Shown here one piece after another: positions 3,650 to 60,724 of a stretch of DNA of 64,000 bases (positions are counted from its first letter, which is position 1; each line of letters begins with the position of its first letter). The notes beneath the pieces are model-generated. The model was given only the letters and a program-made list of their open reading frames with translations. It did no database searches and had not been told where the DNA came from. A program made the translations under genes and the position numbers. Where the stretch lies: positions 163,934 through 227,933 of the forward strand of contig NZ_JONM01000001.1 of NCBI RefSeq assembly GCF_000711875.1, written 5' to 3'. Origin of the DNA: Andreprevotia chitinilytica DSM 18519. GTDB lineage: Bacteria; Pseudomonadota; Gammaproteobacteria; Burkholderiales; Chitinibacteraceae.

Positions 3650-3667
3650 GCACCACCGCACCGCATT

Positions 3668-8330: not shown

Positions 8331-8362
8331 TCGGTTGGCGTTCTCAAACGCCCTCGGGTTTT

Positions 8363-32992: not shown

Positions 32993-33057
32993 TGAAGTAG
33001 CTTGTTGGATTGCAGTTCTACAAAGCCGCCTTCGGGCTAATGCCACTCGCTTAACGA

Positions 33058-33200
33058 CTCCCCTCGCCCACTTGTGGGAGAGGGGCCGGGGGTGAGGGTT
33101 GTGCCACGAGCAATGTCGTTGCAAGCACCCTCTCCCTAGCCCTTTCCCGCTGTCCCTGAATAAGGCTAAAGCCTTGCACGGGAGGGCGAGGGGACGATTT
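33058..33200. repeat. composite REP/MITE-like element (second copy of 8363..8500)
   Basis: near-identical order of sub-motifs. Confidence 0.6.
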
Positions 33201-41934: not shown

Positions 41935-41967
41935 TAAAAAAAGGCCGATCGAGTCGGCCTTTTTGTT
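41935..41967 (-). terminator. rho-independent terminator
   Basis: aaaaaaggccgatcgagtcggccttttt. Confidence 0.75.
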
Positions 41968-41984: not shown

Positions 41985-42266
41985 TCAGAGATCGTGCGGC
42001 ACCGCGGCGTTGGCAAAGCGAACCAGGCTTTCAGTTTGGGCCTGTGGAGTGACGTTGGCGCTCGATTGCGTCGGCACGATCGCGCTGCCGATGAACTGGA
42101 CCAGGCCTTCCGACGAATTTTGGGTCGTGGTGGCTTTGACCGAGTTGGCCGTTGCAGCGTGTTGGCCGTTTTGCAGCTGGAAGTTTTCACCCAGCGCACC
42201 GGCTTGAGCTGCGCCCATGGCGCCCAGGAAACCAACGGTAGCGATAACAGTAGCAAGCTTTTTCAT
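41985..42266 (-). CDS. small secreted peptide, copy 1 (93 aa; signal MKKLATVIATVGFLGAMGAAQA)
   Basis: ATG after AAAGGA RBS; first ~60 aa and ~140-nt upstream leader identical to copy at 45392. Confidence 0.6.
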   Translation of the reverse strand: MKKLATVIATVGFLGAMGAAQAGALGENFQLQNGQHAATANSVKATTTQNSSEGLVQFIGSAIVPTQSSANVTPQAQTESLVRFANAAVPHDL

Positions 42267-42620
42267 GATGATGATCCTTTCTGTCTTGTGGTCAGAGCGC
42301 GTGATGCCGAGATGAGAGGCGGTTGGCCGTTGACTTGGCATCACGTGAAGGATGTCGTTCGGTTGTGTTGCAATGCGACATCGATGGACGTACTTTATTG
42401 GCATTCGTTTGGTTGATAAATGGTGGATATGTAGATGATTTAATTCCTTGATATTGATAATAATGTGGTTGTTGACTATTGACTTTGCTATTATTTTCTA
42501 TGTTTGTAATTATTTGTTGGCAGTTGGAAAGATGGTGTAGTGACGTCAACGTGTCAGTACCGTCGCCGCGCCGACGCAGTGCCGATCAGCGACGACTTCG
42601 AAAGAACGAAACATGGATGG

Positions 42621-43547
42621 ATGAACGGAATGGATAGCTTACTCAGCATGCGGGTTTTCAATCAGGTCGTGACCAACGGCAGTTTTGTCGGTGCGGCGGA
42701 TCGGCTTGGCATGTCCACTGCCATGGTCAGCAAACACATCAAGCATCTGGAAAGCAAACTGGGCATCCGGCTGTTGAACCGCACCACGCGTGCGCTCAGT
42801 CTCACCGGGCCGGGCGGGGTGTATTTCGAGCGTTGCCAGCATGTGCTGGCAGATCTGGACGAGCTGGAACACGCGGTCGGCCAGTCCACCATCAAGCCGC
42901 GTGGCACGCTCAAGGTCAGCGTGCCAGTCACCTTTGCGGTGAACTACCTCTGCCCGGTGCTCGCCGACTATTACGCCCGCTATCCGGAAATGAAGGTTGA
43001 TCTGCAATTGTCGGATCGGGTGATCGATCTGGTCGACGAAGGCATCGATCTGGGCATCCGTATCTCGGCTGATCCCAACCCGTCGCTGGTGGCGCGGCGG
43101 CTCAGCCCGATCCGCTTCGTGATGGTGGCGTCGCCCGAATACCTGGAGCGCAACGGCACGCCGCAGACGCCGGACGATCTGGTCGATCACTCCTGCATTA
43201 CTTATGCCTATTCCAACAACGGTACGGCCTGGAGTTTCACCGGGCCGGATGGCGCCATTACCGTGAACATCCAGCCCAAGCTGCGGGTGAACAACGGCGA
43301 AATGGCCGCAAAGGCCGCGCTGGCAGGCTTGGGGCTGACGATTCAGCCGCTGATCCTCACCCAGCAATATCTGAAAAGTGGTGAACTGGTGCCAATCTTG
43401 CAGGACTTTCCGCGTCCTGAAGTCTGGGTGTATGCCGTTTACCCGAATCGCAGCTATCTACCGGCTAAAACACGGGCCTTCATCGATCTGCTGGTCGAAC
43501 ACTTTGGCGAAACGCCGCCGTGGGGCAATACCGGCGGCTGCTGTTAG
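42621..43547 (+). CDS. LysR-family transcriptional regulator
   Basis: HTH SLLSMRVFNQVVTNGSFVGAADRLGMSTAMVSKHIKHLESKLG. Confidence 0.85.
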   Translation: MNGMDSLLSMRVFNQVVTNGSFVGAADRLGMSTAMVSKHIKHLESKLGIRLLNRTTRALSLTGPGGVYFERCQHVLADLDELEHAVGQSTIKPRGTLKVSVPVTFAVNYLCPVLADYYARYPEMKVDLQLSDRVIDLVDEGIDLGIRISADPNPSLVARRLSPIRFVMVASPEYLERNGTPQTPDDLVDHSCITYAYSNNGTAWSFTGPDGAITVNIQPKLRVNNGEMAAKAALAGLGLTIQPLILTQQYLKSGELVPILQDFPRPEVWVYAVYPNRSYLPAKTRAFIDLLVEHFGETPPWGNTGGCC

Positions 43548-43592
43548 GAATCTGTTCACGATCTTCTGAGAAGTCGATTCACTGAACAGATG

Positions 43593-43660
43593 CGGCGCAA
43601 TGCCCTTCGGGGATTGCGCCCTACGACACTGCCAGGGTGTTCCCCCTCCCGCGAAGGGGG
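43593..43660. repeat. REP-like palindromes (family E + family B fragment)
   Basis: gcgcaatgcccttcggggattgcgccctacg ; ccccctcccgcgaagggggc. Confidence 0.5.
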
Positions 43661-43985
43661 CTCGATACATGAAAAGATCGTAGACAGGCGCCAAGGCGGA
43701 TTCAATCCGGCGATGTTGACTGCACCATGAACCGCATCGCCGCCTTTCAACAAGCAAATGTGATCCTGAACACACGGCTGCCAATGGCATGATTCCGTAC
43801 GTCAGCTTCTCGTTTCGCATCGCAACAAAGCATCCCAGAATGCAATCCTCAAAATCGGCGCCCGGCGGCATGCCCGGGCGGCACGGTTGCTGGTTCGCGC
43901 TATTGGCGGGTTAGGGCGTGGGACTGTGCAAGCGCAGATTACGCAGCCATGCTGGCACGACCAGCGGCAGCAAAAGAGGGCAGAA

Positions 43986-44966
43986 GTGGACACGCTACGC
44001 CTGATGTTGTTTGGCCATCTGGCCGCAAGCCTGGGCCGGCCGCTGGCAGAGCGGCAGGTCAAGTTGCCGTATTCCTTGGGGGCACTGCTCGCCTTGCTGG
44101 TGCTCGCACGCGGCAAACTGGTCGCGCGCAGTGTGCTGGCGGCGCAGCTCTGGAGCGAGCGTGCCGGAGATGCCAGCGGTAGCCTGAATACGGCCCTGTG
44201 GCGTTTGCGCAAACTGGTGGAACCTGCGCCGATGCTGGCGGGGTCGGTGATCAAGTCCAACTCGCGCGGCGATGTCGGCTTCAATTTCGACGGGCCGTGC
44301 TGGGTGGATATCGACATCTTCGAAAGCCAGCTCGGCCGCCTGCTCAACAAACCGATCCACAAGCTGGATGTGGCCGAGATCGCTGAACTGAACGATGCGC
44401 TTGAACTCTACCGCGCCGACGTGCTGGCCAATTATCAGGAAGACTGGGCCTTGCGCGAGCGCGAGCGGATGCGGCGGTTGTACCTTGATGCGCTTGGCCG
44501 GCTGGTCGAATACGCCACCGTCCGCACCGAATACGCCTGCGGTATCCGCTATGCCCACCGTATTCTCGATGCCGATCCGCTGCGCGAGGATGTACACCGC
44601 GATCTGATGCGGCTGTATATGCAGAACGGCCAGCGTGCGCTGGCTTTGCGCCAGTTCGAAGCTTGTCGTGACTTGCTGCGGCACGAGCTGGCAATCCCGC
44701 CGATGGCGGAAACGATCCAGCTGTATCGCCGCATCGCTGATGAAACAGCCAACGCTGCCGTCAAGCCAGCGCCGCCTGCTGCGGTTCCGCCCTCCACGGA
44801 CGTGGAACCCGCCTCGGATGCGTTTCCAACCGACGACCCGCTCGTGCTGCGTGCGCAGCTGCAGCAACAGCTGGTGCAGGTACGCGAATCGCTGCGCGTG
44901 GCAGAAGGCAGGATTGCGCAGAGTTTGCTGTTGCTGGAGAAGAAGGCCGGAAGCGCGCCTTTCTAG
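43986..44966 (+). CDS. SARP-family regulator (OmpR-type winged helix + BTAD domain)
   Basis: GTG start chosen (MDTLRLMLFGHL..); AfsR/DnrI/RedD-like layout with BTAD helices (ELYRADVLANYQEDWALRERERMRRLYLDALGRL). Confidence 0.65.
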   Translation: MDTLRLMLFGHLAASLGRPLAERQVKLPYSLGALLALLVLARGKLVARSVLAAQLWSERAGDASGSLNTALWRLRKLVEPAPMLAGSVIKSNSRGDVGFNFDGPCWVDIDIFESQLGRLLNKPIHKLDVAEIAELNDALELYRADVLANYQEDWALRERERMRRLYLDALGRLVEYATVRTEYACGIRYAHRILDADPLREDVHRDLMRLYMQNGQRALALRQFEACRDLLRHELAIPPMAETIQLYRRIADETANAAVKPAPPAAVPPSTDVEPASDAFPTDDPLVLRAQLQQQLVQVRESLRVAEGRIAQSLLLLEKKAGSAPF

Positions 44967-44984
44967 GTGCCAACCATGCCCTGT

Positions 44985-45058
44985 TGTAGGAGCGAGCTTG
45001 CTCGCGATGGCAATGGTGGATGACACGATGCAATCGCGAGCAAGCTCGCTCCTACAGA
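44985..45058. repeat. REP-like palindrome, family D
   Basis: ttgtaggagcgagcttgctcgcgatgg..atcgcgagcaagctcgctcctacag. Confidence 0.65.
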
Positions 45059-45082
45059 GGCAGCGGTGGTGTCACCCTTTGC

Positions 45083-45162
45083 CACACCTCACACCTCACA
45101 CCTCACACCTCACACCTCACACCTCACACCTCACACCTCACACCTCACACCTCACACCTCAC
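45083..45162. repeat. tandem heptanucleotide microsatellite (CACCTCA)n, ~11 copies
   Basis: perfect head-to-tail repeats read directly. Confidence 0.9.
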
Positions 45163-45391
45163 ATTCCCCCAAGGCCAACGCGGAAACATCGTTGTAATTA
45201 TCAATAAATAAGAATCAAATAATCTACAAATTGATTATTTTTTTGCGAAGCGTGTGTGGCTAAAGTACGTCCATCGATGTCGCATTGCAACACAACCGAA
45301 CGACATCCTTCACGTGATGCCAAGTCAACGGCCAACCGCCTCTCATCTCGGCATCACGCGCTCTGACCACAAGACAGAAAGGATCATCATC

Positions 45392-45595
45392 ATGAAAAAG
45401 CTTGCTACTGTTATCGCTACCGTTGGTTTCCTGGGCGCCATGGGCGCAGCTCAAGCCGGTGCGCTGGGTGAAAACTTCCAGCTGCAAAACGGCCAACACG
45501 CTGCAACGGCCAACTCGGTCAAAGCCACCACGACCCAAAATTCGTCGGAAGGCCTGGTCCAGTTCATCGGCAGCGCCGTGGTGCCGAACCGCTAA
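45392..45595 (+). CDS. small secreted peptide, copy 2 (67 aa)
   Basis: identical leader/RBS/first 60 aa to 41985..42266 in inverted orientation. Confidence 0.6.
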   Translation: MKKLATVIATVGFLGAMGAAQAGALGENFQLQNGQHAATANSVKATTTQNSSEGLVQFIGSAVVPNR

Positions 45596-45639
45596 GGAAA
45601 CGGCATCACGCCGCTTCACCAACGCACTTCCTCGCAAAA

Positions 45640-45672
45640 AAGGCCGACTCGTTCGGCCTTTTTTGTTGCTCG
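45640..45672 (+). terminator. rho-independent terminator
   Basis: aaaaaggccgactcgttcggcctttttt. Confidence 0.75.
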
Positions 45673-45942
45673 CTCGCTGTATTCCATACACGGCCACCCT
45701 CGGCCGCAACAGTATCCGGGCTACTTCCCCCGTCACTTCTCGCCCACATTCTCAGTAACTGTCGAATGCATACGTGATTCGACAGTGATGGCTGCCATTT
45801 TCTATCTGAAAACTTACATATGTGTGATGTTGTGGTGATCGTGATGTGAGCAGACTGTGACAGTGCCCGCACATACTTCCGTCAGACAAAGACTGAAAGT
45901 GGGGTGCCTGTCGGCACAGGTAACCCGGCAAGCGAGCTCGGG

Positions 45943-46206
45943 ATGGCAAAGCGTCTGCAAGACCAAACGGCGGTGTTCATCGTGCGGATCTGGTGCGAGG
46001 AGCGCGAAATCGAAAATGCCGCCGGTGAATGGCGTGGCGTTGTCGAGCATGTGCGTTCCAATCAGCGCATGTTTTTCCGCACGCTGGAAGGTATGTCGGC
46101 CTTCATGCAGCCCTTTCTTGAGGAAGTCGGCATCGCGCCGCAGGACCGCTGGTGGGAAGGGGTGGAAGACAGCCTTTCGCTGCCGCCGGGCGAGCAGGTG
46201 GAGTGA
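45943..46206 (+). CDS. hypothetical small protein (first gene of protease-rich cluster)
   Basis: ATG 45943 inside GTG ORF 45904..46206. Confidence 0.4.
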   Translation: MAKRLQDQTAVFIVRIWCEEREIENAAGEWRGVVEHVRSNQRMFFRTLEGMSAFMQPFLEEVGIAPQDRWWEGVEDSLSLPPGEQVE

Positions 46207-46224: not shown

Positions 46225-49200
46225 ATGACTGTTGCCCAGCAGGAGATTGGCATGGCACTGATTCGCGCAAACCGGGAAACGGTTGATGACCGTTTCTCCA
46301 TCGTCGGCTTCACCGTCCGCACCGGGCCCAATCCTCTGTTCGAGGTAGCGGTCGCCAGCGACCCGGAGCTGTTCAAGCCCGAAAACCGTGCCAAGCGCGG
46401 TCGCAACAATTTCTATTCCAGCCGGGCCGCCGGTGCGATGCGCGCCCGCCGTGGCGAGGCGGTCTATCTGATTCCGCCCGATGTGCTCACGCATTTCGTG
46501 GGGAACAAGCGGCTTTACTTCGGTTTGGCGACCTATGCGGAAGGCAATCGCGCCGAGCCGACCTCGGTACAGGCCCCCACCACCGGTAGTCCGTTCATCA
46601 ATATCGCCGGGCTGACTGGCCGTGGCCTGCGGCGTTTGACATCGAGCCCGACCGACGTGTCGTCGAGTTACGGCGCAGCACGCGGTGAAGATTCCAGTCT
46701 GGCTTGGGGCGGTGATCGGGGTGGTGCCCAAGGCGGCAATGTCCCCACAACGGCGAGCCCCGATACACGTCGTGCAGCGGCAGATGGCCGGGCTGCGCAG
46801 AGCCCCGCCAATGGCGCAGTCAACGGCAGCTCCGCGGTCAACGGCCATACGGCGAGCAGCGCCGCGTCTCGTACCACACCGTCCGCGCCCGACGCGCACT
46901 ACGACGATGGCTTCGATCATCGGCTCTGGCAACAAGCACCGCAGCAAGCACCGCAACAGTCACCAACCCAGCAAGCGCCAGCCCCGGCCCCGACCGCTTC
47001 GGCCCCGGCTGCGCCAACGGCAAGTTCGTCCGCACCTGGGCCGGCTCACGCGCAAAGCCTTGCCTATAACGGCAAGCCCACCGCCCGGCCGCTTGATCTG
47101 ATCGTGCCGTCCAACCAGCCAACATTGTGGGATCAGCTCGGTTTCCTGCGCGATAGCTTGTCCTGGTTCTTCGGCGTCACCGACACCACCGTCTACCCGC
47201 AACACGCCATCTGCCAGATTCGCCGGCCGACGGCGGGCGGGGGGGATGAGCATGTCGGCACGGCGTTCTATGTTGGCCGCAATCGCTTGCTGACCGCCGC
47301 GCACGTGGTCGAGGGCGAAACCAATCTGATCGTCGTGCCCGGCCGCAACGACACCGCCGAGCCCTTCGGTCGCTATACCGTTGCCGCCAGCAGTTTCCGC
47401 ATTCCGGCCAGCCGCAACACCGCCAACCACGATTTCGATATCGCCGTGCTGGACAACACGCCGCAGGCCGCGCCGAACGGTCGTTGGTTCGATTTGATGG
47501 AAGAGCTGCTCACCTCGCAGCCCAGCCCGATCATCGTTTGCGGCTATTCATCGCAATCGCGCCGCGTGCCGCAGATCAACAACCTGATCAACGAAAACAA
47601 GCAGCACCTGCATTCCGGCCGCATCCAGACCGTGCAGGACAACACCTTTTCCTACGATATCCAGACGCTGGCCGGGGCCAGTGGCGCGCCGGTGTACTAC
47701 ATCACCGACAACGGCGGCCAGCCGCAAATCCACCTCGTTGGCGTGCACGTCAGCGGCCTATCCGATACCGAAAACCAAGGCACGCGCCTGACTGAAGCCA
47801 AGATCGCCTGGATCGAAGGCCGCACCACCACGCTTGGGCTGGCAACGGCTCGTGCGCAAAGCATTCCGCTTGATCCCGGCGCGGGCGGCCAGTCGATCGG
47901 CGTAGCCGCGCTGCAGGCCGGCGACATCATCGTGTCCACCACCGACCACGCCACGTCGTACCTGATCCGTGGCGGCAGCATCTCGGCGGTTAGCCACGCC
48001 ATGCTTTATATCGGTGACGGCAAGGTGGTCGAAGCAGTCGGGCAGGGCGTGATCGAGCATCCGCTGGCCGATGCGATCAGCGATGCCATCCTCGCCGTGG
48101 CCTTCCGCTATCCGAATCTGGACGATATGCATCGCCAAGCCGTCGTCAGCTATGCCCGCAGCCAGGTCGGCTTGCCCTACAACTACGCCGGCGCAGCCTA
48201 TGCCGGTTACCGCATCTGGAACCCGATTACCCGCATTGGCGAATGGATCGGCCAGCGGCTGTCGGTTGCGCCGGAAAACGCCGGTTCGTTCTATTGCTCG
48301 CAACTGGTGCTGGAAGCTTATGCCCGTGCCGGCGTGGCCCTCACCACCGAAGCGCCGGATGTCAGCACGCCGGGCGATATCGTCCAGCTCACGCATAGCG
48401 TGCTGAGCTATGTCGGCCATCTGGTCGCCAGCGATTCGTCGTTCGCACTGGCGCTTGCTACCACCGATCCCATCCAACCCAGCCCCTACCGTCGGCGCAT
48501 TCGCCACCCGGCCAGAGCATTGGATGACAGCTCGTTCCGTGTGTATTGGGGCGATGTGCCGTTCCAGCAGCAAAGCAGCACTGGCTCGTGCTGGGCGGCG
48601 GCGGCGGCCATGATCGTCGGTTGGCGCGACAGCACCTGCATCAGCGATCAGGACATTGCTGCCAAGGTGCCGGTGGTGGATGCCTACCTCAATGGCCTGT
48701 GGCCACAGGATCGGCATGTGCTGGCGGATGTGTGGAATCTGGTGGCCGAGCCGCCACAGTCGTACACGCTCGATGGCTTCCGGCAGTTGCTCGCCAACAG
48801 CGGCCCGCTGTGGGTCGCCACCCGCACCCGCTCCGGCGGCGGTCACATCCTGCTGGTCATCGGGATGGAAAGCGATGGCGCGGCGGATGGCTCCGATACC
48901 AATGTGCTGATCTATGATCCGTGGCCCGGCTCGGCGGGTCGCCAGCGCATGCGTTGGCTTGACTTCATCACCCGTTATGAAGGCCGTGCCACCAGCACAG
49001 GTGGCGTGATGCAACCCCAGATCCTGCACGCCGACGGCACGCAGGGCCGCCAGCAAGCGACGGCCGCACCATTCGGGCTGGTCTCGGCGCTGGGCACGCC
49101 GTTCTCGGTGTTCTGGAGCGATGTGCCGTACACGGCGCAGACCAGTGGTATGTCGTGCTGGGCGGCTTCGGCTTCGATGGTGGTGGGCTGGCGTGACCGG

Positions 49201-50283
49201 ATTTCGATCAGTGATCAGGATATTGCCGCCAAGGTGCCGGCCATCGATGCCTACCGCAACGGCCTGTGGCCGCGTGACCGGCAACCGCTGGCGGATGTGT
49301 GGAACCTGATTCCCGAGCCGCCGCAAAGCTACACGCTGGATGGTTTCCGGCAATTGCTCGCCAGCAGCGGCCCGCTGTGGGTCGATTCGCAATTTCCACA
49401 AGGCGGGCACGTGGTCGTGGTGGTCGGGATCGAAAGCGGCGGGGCGGATGATGGTTCCGATACCACCGTCTACATCCATAACCCCGATCCCGGCTCTGGC
49501 CAGCGGGTGAAGATGTCGTGGCAGCAATTCGTGCAGTACTACGAAGGCCGCGTCAGTACCGAAGGCAGCACGCTCAGCGCGCAATTGCTCCATGCCAACG
49601 GTTTGGGCGGTCGCACGCCGGCCACGGTGGCACCGTTCGCGCTCACGCTATCGGCCAATCAGGCCAATACGCTGGACAAGACCCGGCATCAGCGCACCCG
49701 TCCCGCTCGTCCCCAGCAAACGCCACAATCGCCCCAGCATGGCGGGGCGCGGGTCAACGGTTTGACGGCAGCGGGCTTGACGGTGAGCGGCACGGATGCT
49801 GAAACGACGATTTCGCCGTCCCACGTGCCCGGCACGACCATGAGTGCGGTGACCGGCAGCGTTGGCAACTTGTCCTGGCGGCTGGAGCAGTTGCAGGGCT
49901 TCAAATCGCCAGCCGGCCAGCCGAGTGTCACCTCCGCCGCGCCGGATCACGCCGAAGTCCCGCTCGACGATTGGCCGCGCCTGTCCGATGGCCCGGTGCC
50001 GATCAAATTGGCAGTGCGCTGGCAGCACAACGGCAGCGCGCTCGGCAATGTCACGGTCGTGCGCACCGATCAGGCCGACAGCCTGCCGTACCAGCTGCAG
50101 GTGGAAGCCGCCATCGACGACGACACGCTGACCTATCCGCCGCAAGCCCCGCGCTATGCCGCGCTGAACGTGACCATCACCTACCGCTTCAGCAACCTGC
50201 CGGATGGCGCGGCGACTGCCGTCACGCAGCTCAAGCTGTATGGCAACGGCACGTTCGAACGCCACGGTTCCTGGCTGAAATAG
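46225..50283 (+). CDS. 1352-aa multi-domain protease
   Basis: Layout: N-terminal domain, P/A/Q linker, trypsin-like S1 (TAAHVV; GASGAPVYY), permuted papain/NlpC-like module (SFYCSQLVLEAY), two C39-like Cys-peptidase repeats (TGSCWAAAAAMIVGWRD; SGMSCWAASASMVVGWRD), C-terminal domain. Confidence 0.75.
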   Translation: MTVAQQEIGMALIRANRETVDDRFSIVGFTVRTGPNPLFEVAVASDPELFKPENRAKRGRNNFYSSRAAGAMRARRGEAVYLIPPDVLTHFVGNKRLYFGLATYAEGNRAEPTSVQAPTTGSPFINIAGLTGRGLRRLTSSPTDVSSSYGAARGEDSSLAWGGDRGGAQGGNVPTTASPDTRRAAADGRAAQSPANGAVNGSSAVNGHTASSAASRTTPSAPDAHYDDGFDHRLWQQAPQQAPQQSPTQQAPAPAPTASAPAAPTASSSAPGPAHAQSLAYNGKPTARPLDLIVPSNQPTLWDQLGFLRDSLSWFFGVTDTTVYPQHAICQIRRPTAGGGDEHVGTAFYVGRNRLLTAAHVVEGETNLIVVPGRNDTAEPFGRYTVAASSFRIPASRNTANHDFDIAVLDNTPQAAPNGRWFDLMEELLTSQPSPIIVCGYSSQSRRVPQINNLINENKQHLHSGRIQTVQDNTFSYDIQTLAGASGAPVYYITDNGGQPQIHLVGVHVSGLSDTENQGTRLTEAKIAWIEGRTTTLGLATARAQSIPLDPGAGGQSIGVAALQAGDIIVSTTDHATSYLIRGGSISAVSHAMLYIGDGKVVEAVGQGVIEHPLADAISDAILAVAFRYPNLDDMHRQAVVSYARSQVGLPYNYAGAAYAGYRIWNPITRIGEWIGQRLSVAPENAGSFYCSQLVLEAYARAGVALTTEAPDVSTPGDIVQLTHSVLSYVGHLVASDSSFALALATTDPIQPSPYRRRIRHPARALDDSSFRVYWGDVPFQQQSSTGSCWAAAAAMIVGWRDSTCISDQDIAAKVPVVDAYLNGLWPQDRHVLADVWNLVAEPPQSYTLDGFRQLLANSGPLWVATRTRSGGGHILLVIGMESDGAADGSDTNVLIYDPWPGSAGRQRMRWLDFITRYEGRATSTGGVMQPQILHADGTQGRQQATAAPFGLVSALGTPFSVFWSDVPYTAQTSGMSCWAASASMVVGWRDRISISDQDIAAKVPAIDAYRNGLWPRDRQPLADVWNLIPEPPQSYTLDGFRQLLASSGPLWVDSQFPQGGHVVVVVGIESGGADDGSDTTVYIHNPDPGSGQRVKMSWQQFVQYYEGRVSTEGSTLSAQLLHANGLGGRTPATVAPFALTLSANQANTLDKTRHQRTRPARPQQTPQSPQHGGARVNGLTAAGLTVSGTDAETTISPSHVPGTTMSAVTGSVGNLSWRLEQLQGFKSPAGQPSVTSAAPDHAEVPLDDWPRLSDGPVPIKLAVRWQHNGSALGNVTVVRTDQADSLPYQLQVEAAIDDDTLTYPPQAPRYAALNVTITYRFSNLPDGAATAVTQLKLYGNGTFERHGSWLK

Positions 50284-50304: not shown

Positions 50305-51423
50305 ATGAACCCGCGCCTCGTCCCGCCGCCACCACCCACCCAGGGTGGAGCGGCGACTGCGCAAGCCTTGAACGCCGTCGACATGCTGTCCCAGCGTCTG
50401 GGCGGCAGCCAGAGCGACGGCAGTAACAGCGCAGCTGCGCCAACGCCGAGCCCCGCAGCACCCGTACCCGCGCCGGCACCGACGCCAGCCACCACCACCT
50501 CGCCCAAGCAGCCGGCCACGGAAACCATCGCCCACCGCACTGGCGCAATGGTCAACGAGATCGATTTCCCCGGCTTTGTGGCCGGTCTGGTGCATGGCAC
50601 TTTCGATGCCATCGTCGATGCCTCGATCCGGCAGATGGAAAGCTTCTCCGGCCTGGTGTCGGCGGTCGCCAAGACCGTCGACCAGTTCACCGAGGAAAAC
50701 GTCACGCTCAATCAGGCGCGGGACTGGCTCACCAGCCACTATCCCGGCGACGTGCATCTGGTGCTGTCCAGCGACCCGGCCATCGGCCCGCAACTGGCTC
50801 CGGCGCGAGAAGGCTTGTCCCCGGCGTGGCTAGCGGACTTCGATCTCGAAGGGAACGAACTCACTACTGAGCTGTTGGAGAACCAGTTGCTGCCTATCGT
50901 GCGCAGCCGCACCGGTGCGGATCGCCAACAACTGCTGGCAACGATGGTGCTGCTCGGCATGAACCGCGTGGCGGTCAAGGATGGTTCGATTTCGGCCAAG
51001 GTGATGTTCCGCGCCAGTGCGGAGGATTCCGCCAAGGTGTCCTACGCCACCAGCAACGACCCGCAAGGCGTCGCCAATTGGGGCGAGCGGGGCAGCCTGT
51101 CTTATAGCGGCGGCGCCAGCACGATGGTGTCCACCCTGGGTGTGAACGCGCAGAACGATTCATCGATCAAGACCGATCTGCTGGGCGAAGTGAAGATCAA
51201 TTTCGTCAGCGAAACCTTGCCGCTCGACCGCCTGATGGATCAAGCCAAGATCGCGCTGCTGCAACGCAATTCCCGCGTGGCGGAAACCGCCAACCGGGGT
51301 TTGAATGCGCCTGCCCCAGCCGCCGCGCCAGCACCACAAGCCGCATTGCCACCGGCCGCTGCGCCGGTCGCAACACCGACCGCCCCGGCCCCCGCCGCAG
51401 TACATGAAGGGAGGCCAGCCTGA
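50305..51423 (+). CDS. unknown family, paralog A (372 aa): conserved helical core + beta segment + Pro/Ala-rich tail
   Basis: shares FPxFVxGL(I/V)xG(V/T)FxxIVx(S/A)SIxQMExxxxLV, RQQLLATMV(M/L)LGxNR(I/V)(V/A)VxDGxIxAKV, E(V/I)(K/R)(I/V)NF(K/V)S(D/E)(Y/T)LP(L/M) with 57983, 59369, 61717 genes. Confidence 0.7.
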   Translation: MNPRLVPPPPPTQGGAATAQALNAVDMLSQRLGGSQSDGSNSAAAPTPSPAAPVPAPAPTPATTTSPKQPATETIAHRTGAMVNEIDFPGFVAGLVHGTFDAIVDASIRQMESFSGLVSAVAKTVDQFTEENVTLNQARDWLTSHYPGDVHLVLSSDPAIGPQLAPAREGLSPAWLADFDLEGNELTTELLENQLLPIVRSRTGADRQQLLATMVLLGMNRVAVKDGSISAKVMFRASAEDSAKVSYATSNDPQGVANWGERGSLSYSGGASTMVSTLGVNAQNDSSIKTDLLGEVKINFVSETLPLDRLMDQAKIALLQRNSRVAETANRGLNAPAPAAAPAPQAALPPAAAPVATPTAPAPAAVHEGRPA

Positions 51424-51860
51424 TGATCCGCGAACTCTCCGCCGTGCTGCTGGAAATGCACAACGCGCTGCAGTCGGAACTCAACCTGGCTCGCGACGCT
51501 GGCGTGCCGCTGTTGCTCGATAGCGTCGAGCTGACCTTGCCGATGCAATTCCAGAACGTGTTTGCCGATGGCCAATGCCTGCTGTGCGCCGACGTGCCGC
51601 GCACGCTCGATCCGGGGGGCTTTGATTTGCCGCTGGGGCGGATGCATGCGCGGTGGGAGCGGGTGGATGGGGAAGATGAGGATTCAACACCCAGCTTGGG
51701 CATTCCCCCCTTCCTCGAAGGGGGGGGAGGGGGGATTTCTGCGCCTTCTCAAGTTGCCACTGCATCTGAACTTGGCACTGTGTCGAAATCCCCCCCACCC
51801 CCCTTCACAAAGGGGGGAGTAACAACGTTCGCTCCAGCAAGGAGGCCCGGCCATGAGTAA
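51423..51860 (+). CDS. hypothetical protein; 3' third of ORF is occupied by a REP/MITE copy
   Basis: ATGA overlap with upstream gene; REP family B 51703..51830 lies inside ORF so true C-terminus uncertain. Confidence 0.4.
   Translation: MIRELSAVLLEMHNALQSELNLARDAGVPLLLDSVELTLPMQFQNVFADGQCLLCADVPRTLDPGGFDLPLGRMHARWERVDGEDEDSTPSLGIPPFLEGGGGGISAPSQVATASELGTVSKSPPPPFTKGGVTTFAPARRPGHE
51703..51830. repeat. REP/MITE-like element, family B (second copy of 27468..27565)
   Basis: ccccccttcctcgaaggggggg ; ggggggatttct..gcgcc..tcgaaatccccccc. Confidence 0.6.
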
Positions 51861-52794
51861 TGCCATCCCTCCACTGTTGCAGCAACAAGGCGTGCCGTTC
51901 GATGTCTTCATCCAGTCGCTGACCGATCAGCTCGACAAGGCGCAGGCGTCGATGGCGCTCAAGGCGCGGGTCGGCAAGTTGCCGCTCACCTTCGCGGTCA
52001 AGGAATTGACGCTCGATCTGAAGGCCTATGTGCAGATCGTCGATGACGACATCTATTTCCGCCCGGCAGCACCCGGTGATACCGATGCCAGCACCGTCAA
52101 ATTCAGCCTCACCACCATCACCAAGCCGATGATCGAAGAGAACTCGGTCGATTTCGCCGCGCAGCAAAAGCACTTCGATGTCAGTCTCAAGGACGGGCTG
52201 GGCGACAGCATCAATGCCGATGAGCAACGCCGGCTGGAGCGCATGGGCGTGCAGACGATGTCGCAGCTCAATGATTTGCGCAGCCGCGCCGGCGATGACG
52301 TGATCGCCCGCATCACGCGCGTGCCGGTCAATCGCCTGCAAGCCGCATTGATGCGCGCCGCCGCGCCGCAGGTCATGCATGTCGAACCACACCTCAATGC
52401 GCCGAGCGGGGATGCGGCGATGGCGCCTGGCAATGGCCAACTCAATGGTTCATTGATGGGTTCCTCGGTGGGTCCAATGGTCTCTGCCAACCTTAACCCG
52501 CAATCCGTGCCGCCGAATTCGCCGCTGTTGCGTTTGCGTGGCCTCAATTTGCTGCGGGGCGGGCGGCCGCCGCAGGTGCAAGCCGCAGGCGGCAATGTGC
52601 CCGTGCTGGCCGCCAGCGACAGCGAATTGCTGATCTCGCCGCATGCCATGCAACTGGGCTGCGAAGCGGAGCTGACCTTTGATGACGGCGCACGCTGCAC
52701 GGCGCAGTTGCCGCCGCCGGTCCCGCCGCCGATCATTCAGCCCTCGGCACAAAGTCGCCCGCAATCCCCGTCACAGGGGGCTCGCCATGTTTAG
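51853..52794 (+). CDS. hypothetical protein (313 aa), Pro-rich C-terminus
   Basis: ATG 51853 (overlaps previous ORF end by 8 nt); overlapped at 3' end by S8 gene start. Confidence 0.5.
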   Translation: MSNAIPPLLQQQGVPFDVFIQSLTDQLDKAQASMALKARVGKLPLTFAVKELTLDLKAYVQIVDDDIYFRPAAPGDTDASTVKFSLTTITKPMIEENSVDFAAQQKHFDVSLKDGLGDSINADEQRRLERMGVQTMSQLNDLRSRAGDDVIARITRVPVNRLQAALMRAAAPQVMHVEPHLNAPSGDAAMAPGNGQLNGSLMGSSVGPMVSANLNPQSVPPNSPLLRLRGLNLLRGGRPPQVQAAGGNVPVLAASDSELLISPHAMQLGCEAELTFDDGARCTAQLPPPVPPPIIQPSAQSRPQSPSQGARHV

Positions 52795-54328
52795 CGACTA
52801 CGTGCCTTTTGACCCGATGCCCGAAGGCGGCCCGCACTTTGGCGGGCGGATGCGTCGCCGCCTGTTGCTGCGGCTGCCGCTGGGCGAAGTGCCGGATCAT
52901 CTGCCGACGTTCTCTGACTGCCTGCGCCGCATGACCAGCTTTGCCGACACCATCGATGGCGGCGTGGTCGACCGGCTGATCCGCCACCATTGCGGCGGGG
53001 CGCGCACCTGCCGGCTGCACAGTGCCGCGCGTTATGCCGGCTCCCACCTGCGTGTGCCGATGCCCGCACGGGCTTACGACGATCTCGAAATGCTGAGCGG
53101 TGTAGCGCGGGTGTTGCGGCTGGAATTGCAATCGGATGACGGATTCGAGGCGCTGGTCGATGCGCTGCGCCAGCTCGCCAGCGTGGAAGACGTCTCGCCC
53201 AACTATCTCTGCACGCTGTCGCTGGAAGTGCCGCAAGCCGCACCAGACACCCTGCGTGACGATGCCGGCTGGAGCACGCGCCGCATGATCCGCACTGCGG
53301 AAGCGCTCGGCTACGAGCCGGGCGATGAGGGCGTCATTGTCGGGCTGCTCGATACCGGCGTGGCCCAGCAACATCGCGAACTGGCCGGCAAGCTGCGGCG
53401 CGGCTTCGATGCCGTTGCGCTCGATGCCAGCGCCGTTGGCGGCGATTTGCGCCTGATCGGCCCGCATCACCCGGACAACGAGCCGGACGATGATGTCGGC
53501 CACGGCACCGGCTGCGCCGGCATCATCGGCGCATTGGGCGACAGCATGCCGCCGGGGTTGGCCGGGCAGAGCACCTTGCTACCCGTGCGCGTGCTGGGCA
53601 CGGCCGTTGGCAAGAACCACAAACCGGTCGGTATCGGCTCGATTGCCGATATCGATCGCGGCATGAAACGGCTGATCGATCTGGGCGCCAAGGTGATCAA
53701 CATGAGTTTTGGCACGCCGGAATCGATGCTGGGTGAACACGACCCGCCGCCGCATACCGAAGTGGTCAATTACGGCTTGGCACGCGGCTGCATCCTGGTG
53801 GCGGCCAGCGGTAATTCCGGCGCGACGGAGCGCTTTTTCCCGGCCGCACACCCCGGTGTGATCGCTGTCGGTGCCGTCGATGCCGATGGCCGGTTGAGCC
53901 ACTTCTCCACCCGTGGCGAGCACGTGGCGCTATGCGCACCGGGGGAGCGGATCGAGACCAGCGGGATCGTGGTCGTGGAGAGCGGCAACGCGGTTGGCGG
54001 CAGTCAAGACAGTGCACCGGTCTACCAATGGGCCACCGGCACCAGCTTTGCCGCGCCCTTTGTCACGGCGACGGCCGCGTTACTGGTGGCCCGCGCCGCT
54101 CGCCGCGCCTTGCCGCTCGACCCGGCTACCGCCCGCGATGTCCTCATCCGCTCGACCCGTCCCTTCGCGACTACCACCGATGGGGCCGGCAATGGCGTGC
54201 TCGATGCGCTGGCTGCGTTGCGTTTGCTCGATGACCAGCTCGATACGCTGCTGGATGAGGACGATGTGACGTGGGAAGACGTCGCGTCGCCAACGCCGGA
54301 TGAGAAAGGAGGGCGGCCCAATGTTTGA
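52787..54328 (+). CDS. subtilisin-like S8 serine peptidase with ~190-aa N-terminal extension
   Basis: ATG 52787; catalytic Asp LLDTGV, His GHGTGCAGII, Ser GTSFAAPFV. Confidence 0.85.
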   Translation: MFSDYVPFDPMPEGGPHFGGRMRRRLLLRLPLGEVPDHLPTFSDCLRRMTSFADTIDGGVVDRLIRHHCGGARTCRLHSAARYAGSHLRVPMPARAYDDLEMLSGVARVLRLELQSDDGFEALVDALRQLASVEDVSPNYLCTLSLEVPQAAPDTLRDDAGWSTRRMIRTAEALGYEPGDEGVIVGLLDTGVAQQHRELAGKLRRGFDAVALDASAVGGDLRLIGPHHPDNEPDDDVGHGTGCAGIIGALGDSMPPGLAGQSTLLPVRVLGTAVGKNHKPVGIGSIADIDRGMKRLIDLGAKVINMSFGTPESMLGEHDPPPHTEVVNYGLARGCILVAASGNSGATERFFPAAHPGVIAVGAVDADGRLSHFSTRGEHVALCAPGERIETSGIVVVESGNAVGGSQDSAPVYQWATGTSFAAPFVTATAALLVARAARRALPLDPATARDVLIRSTRPFATTTDGAGNGVLDALAALRLLDDQLDTLLDEDDVTWEDVASPTPDEKGGRPNV

Positions 54329-56437: not shown

Positions 56438-56467
56438 AGGGCCGCAACGAGACCGTGAACAGGCTCT

Positions 56468-56575
56468 TAGTCCCCTCGCCCCCTTTAGGGGGAGAGGGTT
56501 AGGGAGAGGGGGCGGTTGATCAACCAGCCACCCTCACCCCCAGCCCCTTTCCCAAAAATGGGCGAGGGGAGAAAA
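56468..56575. repeat. REP cluster family A (two copies)
   Basis: tcccctcgccccctttagggggagaggg ... ccctttcccaaaaatgggcgaggggag. Confidence 0.55.
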
Positions 56576-57659: not shown

Positions 57660-57784
57660 GCGGGCAACGGCAAAACCGCAAATCCTGAACCACAGAGGGC
57701 ACAGAGGTTCACAGAGAAAACCAACCTCAAATCACACGTAAGAACAAGGAGCGTGCGCAGAGAGCGGATGAAAAACGAGGTTTT

Positions 57785-57860
57785 CTGTAGGAGCGAGCTT
57801 GCTCGCGATGGGCGCGCATCAATTCACGATGCAATCGCGAGCAAGCTCGCTCCTACAGAA
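57785..57860. repeat. REP-like palindrome, family D
   Basis: ctgtaggagcgagcttgctcgcgatgg..atcgcgagcaagctcgctcctacag. Confidence 0.65.
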
Positions 57861-57982
57861 ACCTTCTTGCTGGCCGCTTGGTTTTCATCTGTGTTCTCTG
57901 TGCCCTCTGTGGTTCGAGGTTTGGGTTTTGAAATTTCGGTTTTTGCTTGAGTAATGCCCCGCATCGCGCAAGGAAACACATC

Positions 57983-59353
57983 ATGACCATGAATACCGCC
58001 GCCTCCCGCTATCCCGCGCCACCCGCACCAGCCCGGGCGCAGGCCGTCGCCGTCAGCCAGGAAACGCAGGATCAGGCCCGCATCAGCGTGCGCCAACTGC
58101 TGGAGCGCAGCCCGGCCTACGGCAGGCTCGATCACGGCACGCAACGGCAGCTGGCGCATGATCTGGTGAAAATCAGCAGCTATCTGGCCGAGCCGGAAGG
58201 GCAACGCCTCGCCCCAAGCCAGACCGCCCCGGCGGTGCGTGCGCTGGCCGAGAATGTCTCGATGCAAACCGATAGCAGCAATACCAACAGCGACGGCAAA
58301 TTCGTGGCGCAGGGCGCACGTGAAGGGGCGGCGGTGGCTGGCGCGTTGCTGAACGCGATCAACTTCCCCGAGTTCGTGTCTGGCCTCATCAATGGCGTGT
58401 TCCACTCCATCGTCACCTCGTCGATCCAGCAGATGGAGGCCTACGCCAAGCTGGTGGCGGATGTCTCCAAGAGCCTGAACCAGTTCCGCGATGACAACGT
58501 GTCGGACAATCAGGGGCGTGATCATCTGGTCGATCAGTATCCCGATCTGTTCCAGATCACCGTCAACAACGACTTCGGCGGCGGCTTCGGCAGCGATTCC
58601 GGTGGTCCGCCACCGGGGCCGCGTTGCACCCTGCGCGATGGCGTGGACGAGCAAAGCGCGCTGAGCCGCGTCAATCAGATGCCCATCGATGGCGGCCCGC
58701 TGCGCAGTCTGGACGACGACACCGTCGAGCAAAAGCTGGTGCCGGCCGCCCGTACACAACTGGCCACCAGCCGCCAGCAATTGCTGGCAACGATGGTGAT
58801 GATGGGCATCAACCGCATCGTGGTGACCGACGGCAAGATCTCCGCCAAGGTCATGTATGACTTCAAGGCGCAGGACAACATGAAGTTCCGCCAGAGCGCG
58901 CAGCGCTTCGATTACGGCGACCAGTACAGCACCACCAGCAGTGGCAACATGGAAAGCAATACCCAGGGCGCGCAAAGCTCCAGTTCGTCCGGCAGCGATG
59001 GCTCGTCGCAACAGAGCAATCGCGATGCGAGCTATTACTCGAAGGGCACCTACAACACCACCTCGCAGCCGGTGCTCAAGCTCGCCAGCGCCTCGCAGAC
59101 CGATATCAATGCCGACCTGAGCACCAAGGCATCGCTGTCCGGCGTGGTGGAAGTCAATTTCAAGAGCGATTACCTGCCGCTGGACAAGATGGCCGACCCG
59201 GCCGCGATTGCCGCCATCCAGATGAACGCCCAGCCGGGCATGGCGAAAACGACTGCCGGTACGCGCGCGCCTGCGCCCGCAGCAACCCCGGCTGCCGCAC
59301 CAGCACCCGTACCCGCGCCTGCCGCTACACCGGCCGCCCCGGCTGCGCACTGA
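57983..59353 (+). CDS. unknown family, paralog B (~456 aa)
   Basis: ATG after AAGGA RBS (MTMNTAAS) inside ORF 57947..59353; same conserved blocks as 50305 gene; S/Q/N-rich insert; ends PAAPAAH. Confidence 0.65.
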   Translation: MTMNTAASRYPAPPAPARAQAVAVSQETQDQARISVRQLLERSPAYGRLDHGTQRQLAHDLVKISSYLAEPEGQRLAPSQTAPAVRALAENVSMQTDSSNTNSDGKFVAQGAREGAAVAGALLNAINFPEFVSGLINGVFHSIVTSSIQQMEAYAKLVADVSKSLNQFRDDNVSDNQGRDHLVDQYPDLFQITVNNDFGGGFGSDSGGPPPGPRCTLRDGVDEQSALSRVNQMPIDGGPLRSLDDDTVEQKLVPAARTQLATSRQQLLATMVMMGINRIVVTDGKISAKVMYDFKAQDNMKFRQSAQRFDYGDQYSTTSSGNMESNTQGAQSSSSSGSDGSSQQSNRDASYYSKGTYNTTSQPVLKLASASQTDINADLSTKASLSGVVEVNFKSDYLPLDKMADPAAIAAIQMNAQPGMAKTTAGTRAPAPAATPAAAPAPVPAPAATPAAPAAH

Positions 59354-59368
59354 CGGAGGAACGGCATC

Positions 59369-60724
59369 ATGCACAGCGCCACGCCCGGTTATGGGCGGTC
59401 TGATCCCCCATTCGGTCCCCCCTCTGATCCCCCGTCTGATCCGAAGGGGAGGAGGAGCGAGCACCTGCCTGACCACCGGCCGGCGTGGCTGGATGACGAC
59501 ACGCTCGCTGTCGTGCGGCCACAGGTGCGCAAGTTGCTGGAAGCCTCGCCGGGTTTTCAGGCGCTGGCCGATGAAAAGAAGCGCGATATCGCCCGGCAGA
59601 TGGTCAATGTCGCCGCCTATATGGCGAACCCGGATGGCCTCGCCAAGCGCGAGCTGACGCCGGGCCAGAACGTGGTCGAGCAGCCCGGTGTGCTGGCCCG
59701 CCAACAGGATGCGGTGGACGATGCCAAGGCTGCCGCATCCAAGGAAGTCGGCAACTTTGCCGGCAAGGATTTCCAGGCCGGTGCGGTGCAGCAGGGTGTA
59801 CAGCAGTTCGGCGAGCTGGTGCAGAAGGTGGACTTCCCGCTGTTCGTGGCCGGGTTGATCCATAACGTGTTCGAGGCCATCGTCAATTCGTCCATCAAGC
59901 AGATGGAGGCCTACGGCAAGTTACTGGCGAGCGTGTCGCAATCGGTGGCCGATTTTGCCCGCGACAATATTTCGCAAAACAATGCGCGGGATTGGCTGAT
60001 GCAGAAATATCCGGATCAGCTCGGGCTGGATACCTCGTCGGCCGATAGCGGCGGCAGCAATGGCCAGCCTGCCACGCCACGCCTGACCGCCAGCGGTGAC
60101 GATCCGTCGACCTTCCTCAAGACGCTGAGCACCGAGTTCGGCATGAGCAAGCCGGTGGATGATCTATCCGACCCGGAGCAGGAAGGGATGCTGGTGCAGG
60201 CGGCACAGGTGCAGATCGCCAAGAGCCGGCAGCAGTTGCTGGCATCGATGGTGATGCTGGGCATCAACCGCATCGTCGTGACTGACGGCATGATCCACGC
60301 CAAGGTGATCTTCGACCTGAAGGCGAGCGATCAGGCGCAACGGCAGGCGCGGGCATCGTTGTATGACCGCAATGCCAGCCGCAACGTCAATACCAGTGTG
60401 GCCGGTGGCGGTTGGGGCTTCTTCGGTGCAGCGACCGCCAACCAGAATGTGCAGGACCACGTGACGACGGTGCAGTCGTCGGTGGACGAAACATCCGAAT
60501 CGAAGGCGGAAGTGAAAGCCAACCTGACCGGCGAGGTGCGGGTGAATTTCAAATCCGACTATCTGCCGATGGAAAAGATGGCGACGCCGCAGATGATCGC
60601 GTCGATCCAGGGCAATGCCACGCCGTACGATCCGAACAACCCGAACGCGCACAGGCCGGGTGCGGCACCTGCCGCTGCGCCAGCTGCAGCCGCCCCGGCA
60701 CCGCAACCGGCTGCCGCGCATTGA
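59369..60724 (+). CDS. unknown family, paralog C (451 aa)
   Basis: GGAGGA RBS + ATG 59369; conserved blocks; ends QPAAAH. Confidence 0.7.
   Translation: MHSATPGYGRSDPPFGPPSDPPSDPKGRRSEHLPDHRPAWLDDDTLAVVRPQVRKLLEASPGFQALADEKKRDIARQMVNVAAYMANPDGLAKRELTPGQNVVEQPGVLARQQDAVDDAKAAASKEVGNFAGKDFQAGAVQQGVQQFGELVQKVDFPLFVAGLIHNVFEAIVNSSIKQMEAYGKLLASVSQSVADFARDNISQNNARDWLMQKYPDQLGLDTSSADSGGSNGQPATPRLTASGDDPSTFLKTLSTEFGMSKPVDDLSDPEQEGMLVQAAQVQIAKSRQQLLASMVMLGINRIVVTDGMIHAKVIFDLKASDQAQRQARASLYDRNASRNVNTSVAGGGWGFFGAATANQNVQDHVTTVQSSVDETSESKAEVKANLTGEVRVNFKSDYLPMEKMATPQMIASIQGNATPYDPNNPNAHRPGAAPAAAPAAAAPAPQPAAAH

Follow-up and report, generated by a model that had tools for sequence, protein, structure and literature searches.

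Inverted paralogues that evolve in concert by gene conversion are known from the tufA and tufB genes of Salmonella and Escherichia coli. LysR-type transcriptional regulators act at promoters that combine a recognition site with an activation site near −35, each at an expected position and of an expected form. The 5′ untranslated region (UTR) of E. coli ompA, of ~133 nt, carries two stem-loops that stabilize the mRNA, and the operators of SARP regulators (targets of ActII-ORF4, DnrI and AfsR) consist of direct heptad repeats with an 11-bp periodicity that overlap the −35 region. We have analyzed a stretch of 64,000 nt from Andreprevotia chitinilytica DSM 18519 (contig NZ_JONM01000001.1, positions 163,934 to 227,933; hereafter the window, with all coordinates counted from its first letter), in which two inverted copies of a small gene, A and B, flank a LysR and a SARP regulator. 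This locus assembles known kinds of parts (a LysR-type regulator with a divergent target, paralogue conversion and a hairpin-bearing 5′ UTR) around an undescribed small-protein family. The best explanation overall, to which we assign a probability of roughly 65%, is that copy A is an ancestral, LysR-paired peptide gene, that copy B is an inserted paralogue of it, and that the core of the two has been homogenized by gene conversion.

A repeat finder delineated inverted arms at 42071-42461 and 45197-45587 (391 nt, 93% complementary, spacing 2735 nt), which form the largest inverted repeat of the window and cannot be due to chance. The longest exact match between the copies, obtained by longest-common-substring computation and pairwise alignment, is 316 bp with 100% identity. 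It runs from 42397 to 42082 on the minus strand in copy A and from 45261 to 45576 on the plus strand in copy B, so that the two cores lie ~2.9 kb apart on the same chromosome. Each core extends from a −10-like TAAAGT box through the leader and ribosome-binding site (RBS) to codon 62 of a small open reading frame (ORF). A previous sequence-only reading of this DNA had placed identical inverted copies at 42086-42404 and 45257-45575, a few bases from the exact core, and had left the duplication to be checked by nucleotide alignment; with 316 bp identical, the duplication stands. Its boundaries hold to within those few bases, although weaker homology extends further upstream to a 37-nt promoter element common to A and B (~81% identical, by eye). 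The LysR and SARP genes are located between the copies, as that reading had stated, and both are supported by Pfam domain matches. The repeated unit is a complete small gene, consisting of a promoter, a ~125-nt leader, the ORF and a terminator. The inverted pair is present in one genome, that of A. chitinilytica (one assembly).

Gene A (41985-42266, minus strand) encodes a protein of 93 residues (WP_035051715.1) and is supported by its ORF, codon log-likelihood, family alignment and NCBI annotation. Gene B (45392-45595, plus strand; ORF and NCBI annotation) encodes 67 residues (WP_035051720.1) and ends in ...GSAVVPNR. NCBI labels both as hypothetical proteins of Andreprevotia chitinilytica. 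The two products are identical to residue 62, in agreement with the earlier proposal of a signal-peptide-bearing small gene in each copy with divergent C-termini (93 versus 67 residues). The N-terminus, MKKLATVIATVGFLGAMGAAQA followed by G, reads as a canonical Sec signal peptide. Cleavage between AQA and this G would leave ~71 residues in A and ~45 in B, which matches the lower end of the ~45-70 residues previously suggested and slightly exceeds the upper. In peptide A, the signal peptide precedes three motif units, of which the first is degenerate and the other two, EGLVQFIGSAIVP and ESLVRFANAAVP, are clear; the units in the window peptides that match the family motif described below are EGLVQFIGSAIVP and ESLVRFANAAVPHDL, the latter directly before the stop codon, in addition to the degenerate first unit. 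The peptides contain no Cys and no Trp. The codon-usage log-likelihood in the peptide frame is 0.40 per codon, equal to that of LysR and SARP, compared with at most 0.09 for the five other frames and negative values for the long antisense ORFs. These sequence features mark the ORF as a true protein-coding gene, whose small product is predicted to be exported by Sec. N-terminally extended in-frame ORFs of 139 and 113 residues were rejected in favor of the MKK start, because the corresponding frames in two homologues (L009b and L009c) open just 24 nt upstream of the ATG. The MKK start is also favored by the RBS ahead of it, by the NCBI annotation and by the need for a signal peptide to stand at the N-terminus. 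Each gene is followed by a strong intrinsic terminator, as noted before, at 41938-41964 on the minus strand for A (−16.7 kcal/mol, z −5.5) and at 45637-45664 on the plus strand for B (−20.6 kcal/mol, z −5.1). Loop included, a single mismatch among 28 positions separates the terminator of A from that of B. Their stem, GGCCG...CGGCC, is common to all orthologues, whereas the orthologue loops differ from the A/B loop.

The LysR-family regulator (42630-43547, plus strand, 305 residues) is divergent from peptide A and was assigned from Pfam, orthologues and synteny. It contains HTH_1 (PF00126, 6.7e-18) and LysR_substrate (PF03466, 1.8e-47) domains. Its best NCBIfam match is YafC, with 229 bits, far under the cut-off of 470; the protein falls below every NCBIfam cut-off, and its affinity is with the YafC/AaeR-like group. 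Searches of plasmids gave generic LysR similarity alone, with no pointer to a plasmid origin. Four orthologues with 65-74% identity were found, in Andreprevotia sp. IGB-42, a JGI metagenome contig and two Silvimonas genomes (Silvimonas terrae, L012, and a complete genome in which NCBI assigns the small protein to Silvimonas). In all four loci, a small gene with no Pfam match lies 115-205 bp upstream of LysR on the opposite strand. Beyond the LysR-peptide pair, the window shares no synteny with these loci (L009-L012), and the flanks are, therefore, uninformative on any history of inversion.

The products of these small genes begin with a Sec signal peptide, after which one to three units of 12-14 residues follow; the units conform to G-L-[VA]-Q-[FY]-x-x-x-A-V-x-P and are spaced by low-complexity linkers rich in A, T, Q and P. 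Most of the products stop 2-3 residues past the last unit. Examples from IGB-42 are DGLVQYSQRATTPV, QGLVQFSQRARLDA and TSLVEFSQRAVMPLQ, the last at the C-terminus. A hidden Markov model (HMM) built from the family alignment recovers exactly eight genes among the sequences of the examined loci, with E-values from 1e-13 to 1e-41 and the next match at 0.22. These eight genes are distributed over five loci: the window, IGB-42 (three in tandem), the metagenome contig and the two Silvimonas genomes. The three IGB-42 paralogues have ratios of nonsynonymous to synonymous divergence (dN/dS) of 0.17-0.21 at dS of 0.27-0.46, which indicates purifying selection on the protein. A search with the 93-residue peptide against a word index of 5.8 billion proteins returned just the window's own two copies, as did an exhaustive HMMER search of 1.84 billion representatives (one two-member cluster) and scans of genome contigs and metagenome contigs. 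The full family alignment proved too variable for scanning metagenomes, a narrower one found nothing, and none of the eight members matches a Pfam, NCBIfam or PADLOC family. One further hit (P0122, E 4e-4) was rejected, since this Cys-rich repeat protein matches through low-complexity sequence and is unrelated. The peptide family is, thus, undescribed and narrowly distributed, found so far just in Andreprevotia and Silvimonas, with a single conserved partner, LysR. It was missed by homology searches and revealed by synteny alone, and represents a secreted repeat-protein family strictly paired with a LysR regulator in these chitinolytic Neisseriales.

Family members differ in number and in length. 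In Andreprevotia sp. IGB-42 (L009, 3686-5797 of WXTX01000005.1), the three paralogues are tandem direct copies, each with its own promoter, leader and terminator, and a gene for a 179-residue GyrB C-terminal fragment is found between copies a and b. Expansion of the copy number of the peptide gene is, therefore, recurrent in the genus. The Silvimonas terrae orthologue (L012, 5656-5820) has 54 residues, in which one motif unit is intact and the tail is degenerate, and may be either decaying or a minimal one-unit form.

Alignment of the eight upstream regions, comprising all family copies, showed a conserved order of elements: a distal ATTATCAAC-N5-AAGAAAC site, an ATC(C/T)AC element, a proximal (G)TTTATCAAC site over −35, and a −10 of the form TAAAGT or TATGAT. 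The distal site, at about −75 to −40, has the form of a TTAT-N6-ATAA dyad of the T-N11-A type, and the second site lies over −35. Promoter A (42392-42461, minus strand) contains all of these elements in a layout that is conserved in all orthologous loci, with the distal LysR-type site ATTATCAATATCAAGGAAT at 42443-42461, the ATCTACA element at 42427-42441, the proximal TTTATCAACC at 42411-42420 and the −10-like TAAAGT at 42392-42397, each located by the alignment. These sites are placed and shaped like the recognition and activation sites of LysR regulators, and LysR would be expected to bind them. In promoter B (45197-45266, plus strand), three elements are retained, namely the distal site at 45197-45215, ATCTACA at 45217-45231 and TAAAGT at 45261-45266, whereas sequence unrelated to the proximal TTTATCAAC site has taken its place.

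Copies A and B are homologous over ~525 bp, with the distal promoter site at one end and the terminator at the other, and their divergence along this length is very uneven. The distal promoter element is ~81% identical, the −35 region is unalignable, the 316-bp core is 100% identical, the 3′ coding tail differs by 26 codons in length and by further indels, and the terminators return to near identity (1 difference in 28 positions). This pattern argues for conversion within an older duplicate. The core shows no difference in 316 bp between flanks that are ~81% identical or unalignable, while the tandem paralogues of IGB-42 have diverged to dS 0.27-0.46. The identical tract is bounded by heterologies, the lost −35 region on one side and a unit deletion on the other, which points to gene conversion between old paralogues. 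Peptide B is shorter by exactly 26 codons, in frame, equivalent to one motif unit plus linker. Its ending, GCC GTG GTG CCG AAC, matches the end of the third unit of A at 13 of 15 nt, compared with 10 of 15 for the second (read from the sequences), so that an in-frame deletion of a unit by recombination between repeat units fits. B also stops two residues past ...AVVP, like most orthologues. Copy B, with its own promoter and terminator, is located between the stop codon of SARP and the putative SARP operator described below. It appears to have been inserted there, because this intergenic region is ~980 nt long in the window and 235-575 nt in relatives.

Gene conversion best explains a perfect 316-bp core amid diverged flanks, as far as the pattern of identity can tell, and the following history can be proposed. 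Copy A would be the ancestral gene, divergent from LysR, with a full promoter containing distal and proximal TTATCAAC-type sites, and most likely activated by LysR. Copy B would be an older paralogue that entered, inverted, the intergenic stretch separating an unrelated SARP gene from the operator and target operon of that SARP, and that lost one motif unit and the proximal promoter site. Recombinational gene conversion between the inverted copies would have homogenized the 316-bp core. Recombination between these repeats could, in addition, flip the LysR-SARP segment, so that each C-terminal variant would receive the upstream region of the other. As a compact case of concerted evolution, the pair has a tract bounded by the promoter on one side and by an in-frame unit deletion on the other; it is also a ready substrate for inversion.

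Several observations weigh against this interpretation. The inverted pair comes from one genome, and conversion is deduced from the identity pattern rather than from population data. LysR control and the −10 assignment are based on position and conservation. The family is tiny (eight genes in five loci), and its first unit is degenerate in the window peptides. A single-sequence AlphaFold model of the peptide has low confidence (predicted local distance difference test 61, predicted template modeling score 0.26), although its helices over the motif units fit short amphipathic helices. A different history, in which a 316-bp piece was copied once and very recently, and the weaker similarities of the flanks are convergence on generic LysR sites and terminators, would also produce zero differences over 316 bp, and the terminator stem GGCCG...CGGCC is indeed shared across orthologues. 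However, the terminators of A and B agree in the loop too (27 of 28 positions), where the orthologues differ, the upstream 37-nt element is still ~81% identical, and the C-terminus of B retains the family layout of motif, 2-3 residues and stop. We regard this history as quite improbable; a patch recently copied onto an older paralogue would in practice amount to conversion. An unlikely role for the repeats is that of a recombination switch, in which RecA-dependent inversion of the 2.9-kb LysR-SARP segment exchanges the upstream regions of the three-unit and two-unit variants and re-orients the regulators. Perfect inverted repeats of 316 bp are efficient substrates for homologous inversion, and the repeat begins exactly at the −10 box, which places the differing −35 and activator-site regions inside the invertible segment and the differing 3′ ends outside. 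Against such a switch, the ORFs and Pfam matches reveal no recombinase gene in or beside the LysR-SARP segment, the alternative orientation was not seen in the one assembly examined, and inversion is an unavoidable by-product of such repeats that need not be functional. Conversion between an ancestral copy A and an inserted copy B remains our preferred reading.

The leaders of A (42267-42391, minus strand) and B (45267-45391, plus strand) are identical. Each contains hairpin 1, with arms GATGTCG...CGACATC (42351-42382 in A; 45276-45307 in B), hairpin 2, with arms CGTGATGCC...GGCATCACG (42300-42345; 45313-45358), and the block CTGACCACAAGACAG (42281-42295; 45363-45377), followed by the RBS AAAGGA. 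The two hairpins and RBS described by the sequence-only reading are, thus, present, whereas the leader measures ~125-131 nt from the −10-like box to the ATG rather than 140. The window leader folds with −33 kcal/mol (z = −2.3), and Andreprevotia-like loci show almost no variation in the 15-nt single-stranded block CTGACCACAAGACAG that precedes the RBS. Five non-identical long leaders were available for covariation analysis. RNAalifold recovers the same two hairpins from them, with changes on both sides in 7 of 21 pairs, a number matched by 7 of 500 shuffles of these same five related sequences. Six of the 10 pairs of helix 2 show double changes in homologues. Counted on the consensus, 85% of cells pair compared with at most 55% for slid partners, in five sequences and with a structure derived from the same alignment. 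Folded independently by minimum free energy, the homologue leaders L010, L009b and L009a all form hairpin 2 at the homologous position, and in L010 and L009b hairpin 1 is clear as well.

Other observations speak against a functional structure. The leader z-scores are −0.75, −1.9 and 0.0 in three long-leader homologues, compared with −2.3 in the window. The covariation term of RNAalifold is slightly unfavorable (slightly positive), and the consensus structure and the pair count come from the same five related sequences. Additionally, hairpin 2 is absent from the ~60-nt leaders of Silvimonas (L011 and L012). Rfam gave no match in the region at the gathering threshold, and at E<=10 just noise far under the cut-offs. 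The earlier suggestion that the leader may be a cis-regulatory RNA is supported in part: positions are kept and compensatory changes occur in the closest homologues, whereas hairpin 2 is lacking in Silvimonas and no Rfam family matches. On balance, we consider a functional leader RNA structure somewhat more probable than its absence. The hairpins are most likely elements of the mRNA, by analogy perhaps 5′ stabilizers of the ompA type, rather than protein-binding sites, because the sequence of the arms drifts while pairing is kept.

The SARP regulator (44004-44966, plus strand) consists of a winged helix-turn-helix Trans_reg_C domain and a BTAD domain (Pfam). A putative SARP operator is located at 45824-45867 (plus strand), where GTGATG, GTGATC, GTGAGC and GTGACA follow each other at an exact 11-nt period and are followed, after ~9 nt, by CATACT. 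It is the sole array of at least three GTGA boxes at 11-nt spacing in the 64 kb on both strands, with none expected by chance, and no such array occurs at either peptide promoter (42267-42626 and 44967-45391). Homologues of this SARP with 43-52% identity were found in Lysobacter, Marilutibacter, Pseudoxanthomonas, Silanimonas, Thiodictyon and Ideonella; a search of genome contigs gave a single match, a Chloroflexia gene with 34% identity. In five of six other SARP loci, SARP is followed by a protein of ~115 residues (missing in one) and then by a multi-peptidase of 1273-1940 residues. Where Pfam matches are on record, the multi-peptidase contains Trypsin (two trypsin-like), Amidase_2, C92 and C70 (AvrRpt2-like) domains. 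Three loci with long flanks contain further conserved genes of ~325, 85-98 and 257 residues, with an S8 protease next in one of them. The sixth locus (Ideonella) has a different context. The window shows the same order, with an 87-residue gene (45943-46206), which is recognizably homologous to the L005 small protein, a multi-peptidase (46252-50283), a 372-residue gene (50305-51423), an ORF at 51853-52794 and an S8 protease (52679-54328). Upstream of the small gene, the window and the five loci with this order all contain four GTGA(T/G)(G/C) boxes with exact 11-nt spacing, the last of which ends ~40-75 nt before the start codon.

Thus, SARP, the small protein and the multi-peptidase constitute a conserved, apparently uncharacterized module, which no PADLOC or NCBIfam system matches. 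By its operator and gene order, SARP is best described as a neighbor that is predicted to serve the downstream operon and is not part of the peptide module; terminator B also insulates this SARP-controlled operon. The sequence-only reading had described the SARP family as rare outside actinomycetes and as typically controlling secondary-metabolite or signaling clusters. This SARP clade is, in fact, common in Gram-negative bacteria (Lysobacter, Marilutibacter, Thiodictyon), and here it does not mark a secondary-metabolite cluster. Together they form a conserved Gram-negative module with a textbook 11-bp-phased operator. BTAD has been listed as a "shell" regulator of loci for extracellular contractile injection systems (10.1101/2020.09.22.308684); the peptidase operon of the window contains none of their core domains.

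Further features of this module and its surroundings were observed. The small protein of the module has ~87-118 residues and the motif FIVR[IV]W...EWRG.VEHV. The relatives of the module are found in Lysobacter, Marilutibacter, Thiodictyon and their kin (L002, L004, L005, L006 and L008), and four of these five have an HTH_3 gene divergent from SARP, which is missing in the window. The further genes of the module have no Pfam match, apart from a subtilase in the window and in one relative. Between the SARP gene and promoter B, at 45083-45163 (plus strand), a perfect (CACACCT) tandem repeat of 11.6 heptamers, unique in the window, was identified. Read as TCACACC, the heptamer is similar to inverted boxes (e.g. 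GTCACACCTCCATCAC in L005) located upstream of the SARP operator in relatives. The repeat may be a slippage-expanded remnant of such boxes, or a hypermutable spacer affecting the copy B promoter. Downstream of the multi-peptidase, four diverged paralogous segments with 60-79% nucleotide identity (50542-51021, 58340-58870, 59810-60325 and 62017-62511) fall in the ORFs 50305-51423, 57947-59353 (plus strand, direct repeats), 59369-60724 and 61717-63141, and, therefore, represent a locally expanded gene family without a Pfam match.

The sequence-only reading had united LysR, SARP and the peptides into a single autoregulated peptide-signal or bacteriocin-like module, with the peptides as signals or toxins. 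The regulators and peptide genes are indeed physically adjacent, the peptides are small, Sec-exported and repetitive, and the adjoining giant multi-peptidase of secreted type and the S8 protease could process them. However, the four orthologous LysR-peptide loci contain no SARP, peptidase, transporter or immunity gene, the five SARP-peptidase loci contain no such peptide gene, and both peptide promoters are devoid of the SARP-type 11-nt array. The peptides also have no Pfam, NCBIfam or PADLOC match. LysR is paired with the peptide in four of four loci, whereas SARP belongs to a separate conserved module (five of six loci), and we consider a single module very improbable. The hallmarks of class II bacteriocins and of ribosomally synthesized and post-translationally modified peptides are likewise missing from the four orthologous loci, which have no C39 ABC transporter, modifying enzyme or immunity gene and encode a Sec signal peptide in place of a double-glycine or recognition leader. 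Such a role is unsupported because none of these genes travels with the peptide gene. Isolated box-like matches in the leader are no more frequent than background, and this bears also on the proposal that the hairpins act at the DNA level, as inverted-repeat operators for a repressor or for SARP, and not as RNA structure. The arms of hairpin 2, CGTGATGCC and GGCATCACG, resemble the SARP box GCGTGATG(T/C)C, and a third copy of the box-like arm is found at 45601-45611. Scored with a position weight matrix (PWM) built from 20 boxes in five other loci, GCGTGATGCCG reaches 13.5, but equal matches occur elsewhere in the window, including the identical 11-mer at 15647 and 18833. At a PWM score of at least 10.5, the 64 kb contain 42 matches compared with ~20 expected, matches as strong as that of GCGTGATGCCG are just ~2-4 fold over expectation across the window, and they lack 11-nt phasing; the SARP-box interpretation was, hence, rejected. 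In addition, the arms change while pairing is kept (6 of 10 double changes in helix 2), the opposite of what a protein-binding site would show. DNA operators are, thus, an extremely improbable explanation of the hairpins, which we continue to regard as candidate mRNA elements.

Our best guess is that the peptide is induced by LysR, resides in the periplasm or outside the cell, and has short motifs that form amphipathic helices. A highly doubtful alternative is that the peptides are secreted multi-core pro-peptides, which release signals of 12-14 residues (GLVQ[FY]xxxAVxP) that are sensed, directly or indirectly, through LysR, as a Gram-negative counterpart of the Phr/RNPP systems. If this were true, the number of paralogues (two inverted here, three tandem in IGB-42) and of units would tune the signal dose, and the neighboring multi-peptidase or S8 protease might process the A. 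chitinilytica pro-peptides.

Additional elements were identified elsewhere in the window. A palindrome resembling repetitive extragenic palindromic elements (TGTAGGAGCGAGCTTGCTCGCGA...) lies at 44985-45056, directly after the SARP stop codon, and a second copy, with 81% complementarity across 74 nt, is found 12.7 kb downstream at 57784-57857. Another family of repeated GC-rich palindromes, CTCCCCTCGCCC..TGGGAGAGGGGCCGGGGG, is scattered over intergenic sites in both orientations (3666-3709, 8360-8403, 24835-24876, 33055-33098 and 56467-56571). Rfam also identified a C4 antisense RNA (RF01695) at 26973-27061 on the plus strand (69.6 bits, gathering score 45, E = 1.8e-11). The C4 antisense RNA is an immunity RNA of P1/P7-type phages, and the match suggests a prophage or phage remnant ~15 kb upstream.

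None of these results overturns current understanding; their value lies in a corrected annotation, a LysR regulon open to testing and a candidate structured 5′ leader, and the locus is best appreciated against the systems introduced at the outset. Like tufA and tufB, the peptide genes are two inverted copies with a tract free of differences, synonymous sites included, beside diverged flanks. However, the tract, which takes in promoter, leader and 5′ coding sequence, is short at 316 bp, and the copies are only 2.9 kb apart. The arrangement differs from the fimS, hin and gin switches in having no recombinase, just LysR and SARP between the repeats, and repeats of 316-391 bp that are not short. 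As at classic LysR promoters, a putative dyad recognition site near −65 is combined, at the sequence level, with a putative activation site near −35, the latter missing in copy B. The regulator has the HTH_1 and LysR_substrate domains and, like the E. coli YafC/AaeR/TtdR-like subfamily, a divergently transcribed target, conserved in four of four loci, but this target is a tiny secreted repeat protein rather than an enzyme or transporter operon. The leader is similar to the ompA 5′ UTR in its ~125 nt, a 5′ stem-loop, a second long stem-loop, a single-stranded segment before the RBS and an exported product; it has no sequence or Rfam relationship with it, and a stabilizing role is suggested by analogy. 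With the Phr/RNPP signals of Firmicutes, the peptides share a small Sec-exported precursor beside a cytoplasmic transcription factor and, as in multi-core precursors, repeated short conserved units separated by variable linkers. The adjacent regulator is, however, a LysR and not a tetratricopeptide-repeat RNPP receptor, and the host is Gram-negative. Finally, the architecture of actinomycete SARP operators is found at 45824-45867 and in five homologous loci, here ahead of an operon for an 87-residue protein and a multi-peptidase in a Gram-negative betaproteobacterium, rather than a secondary-metabolite cluster.

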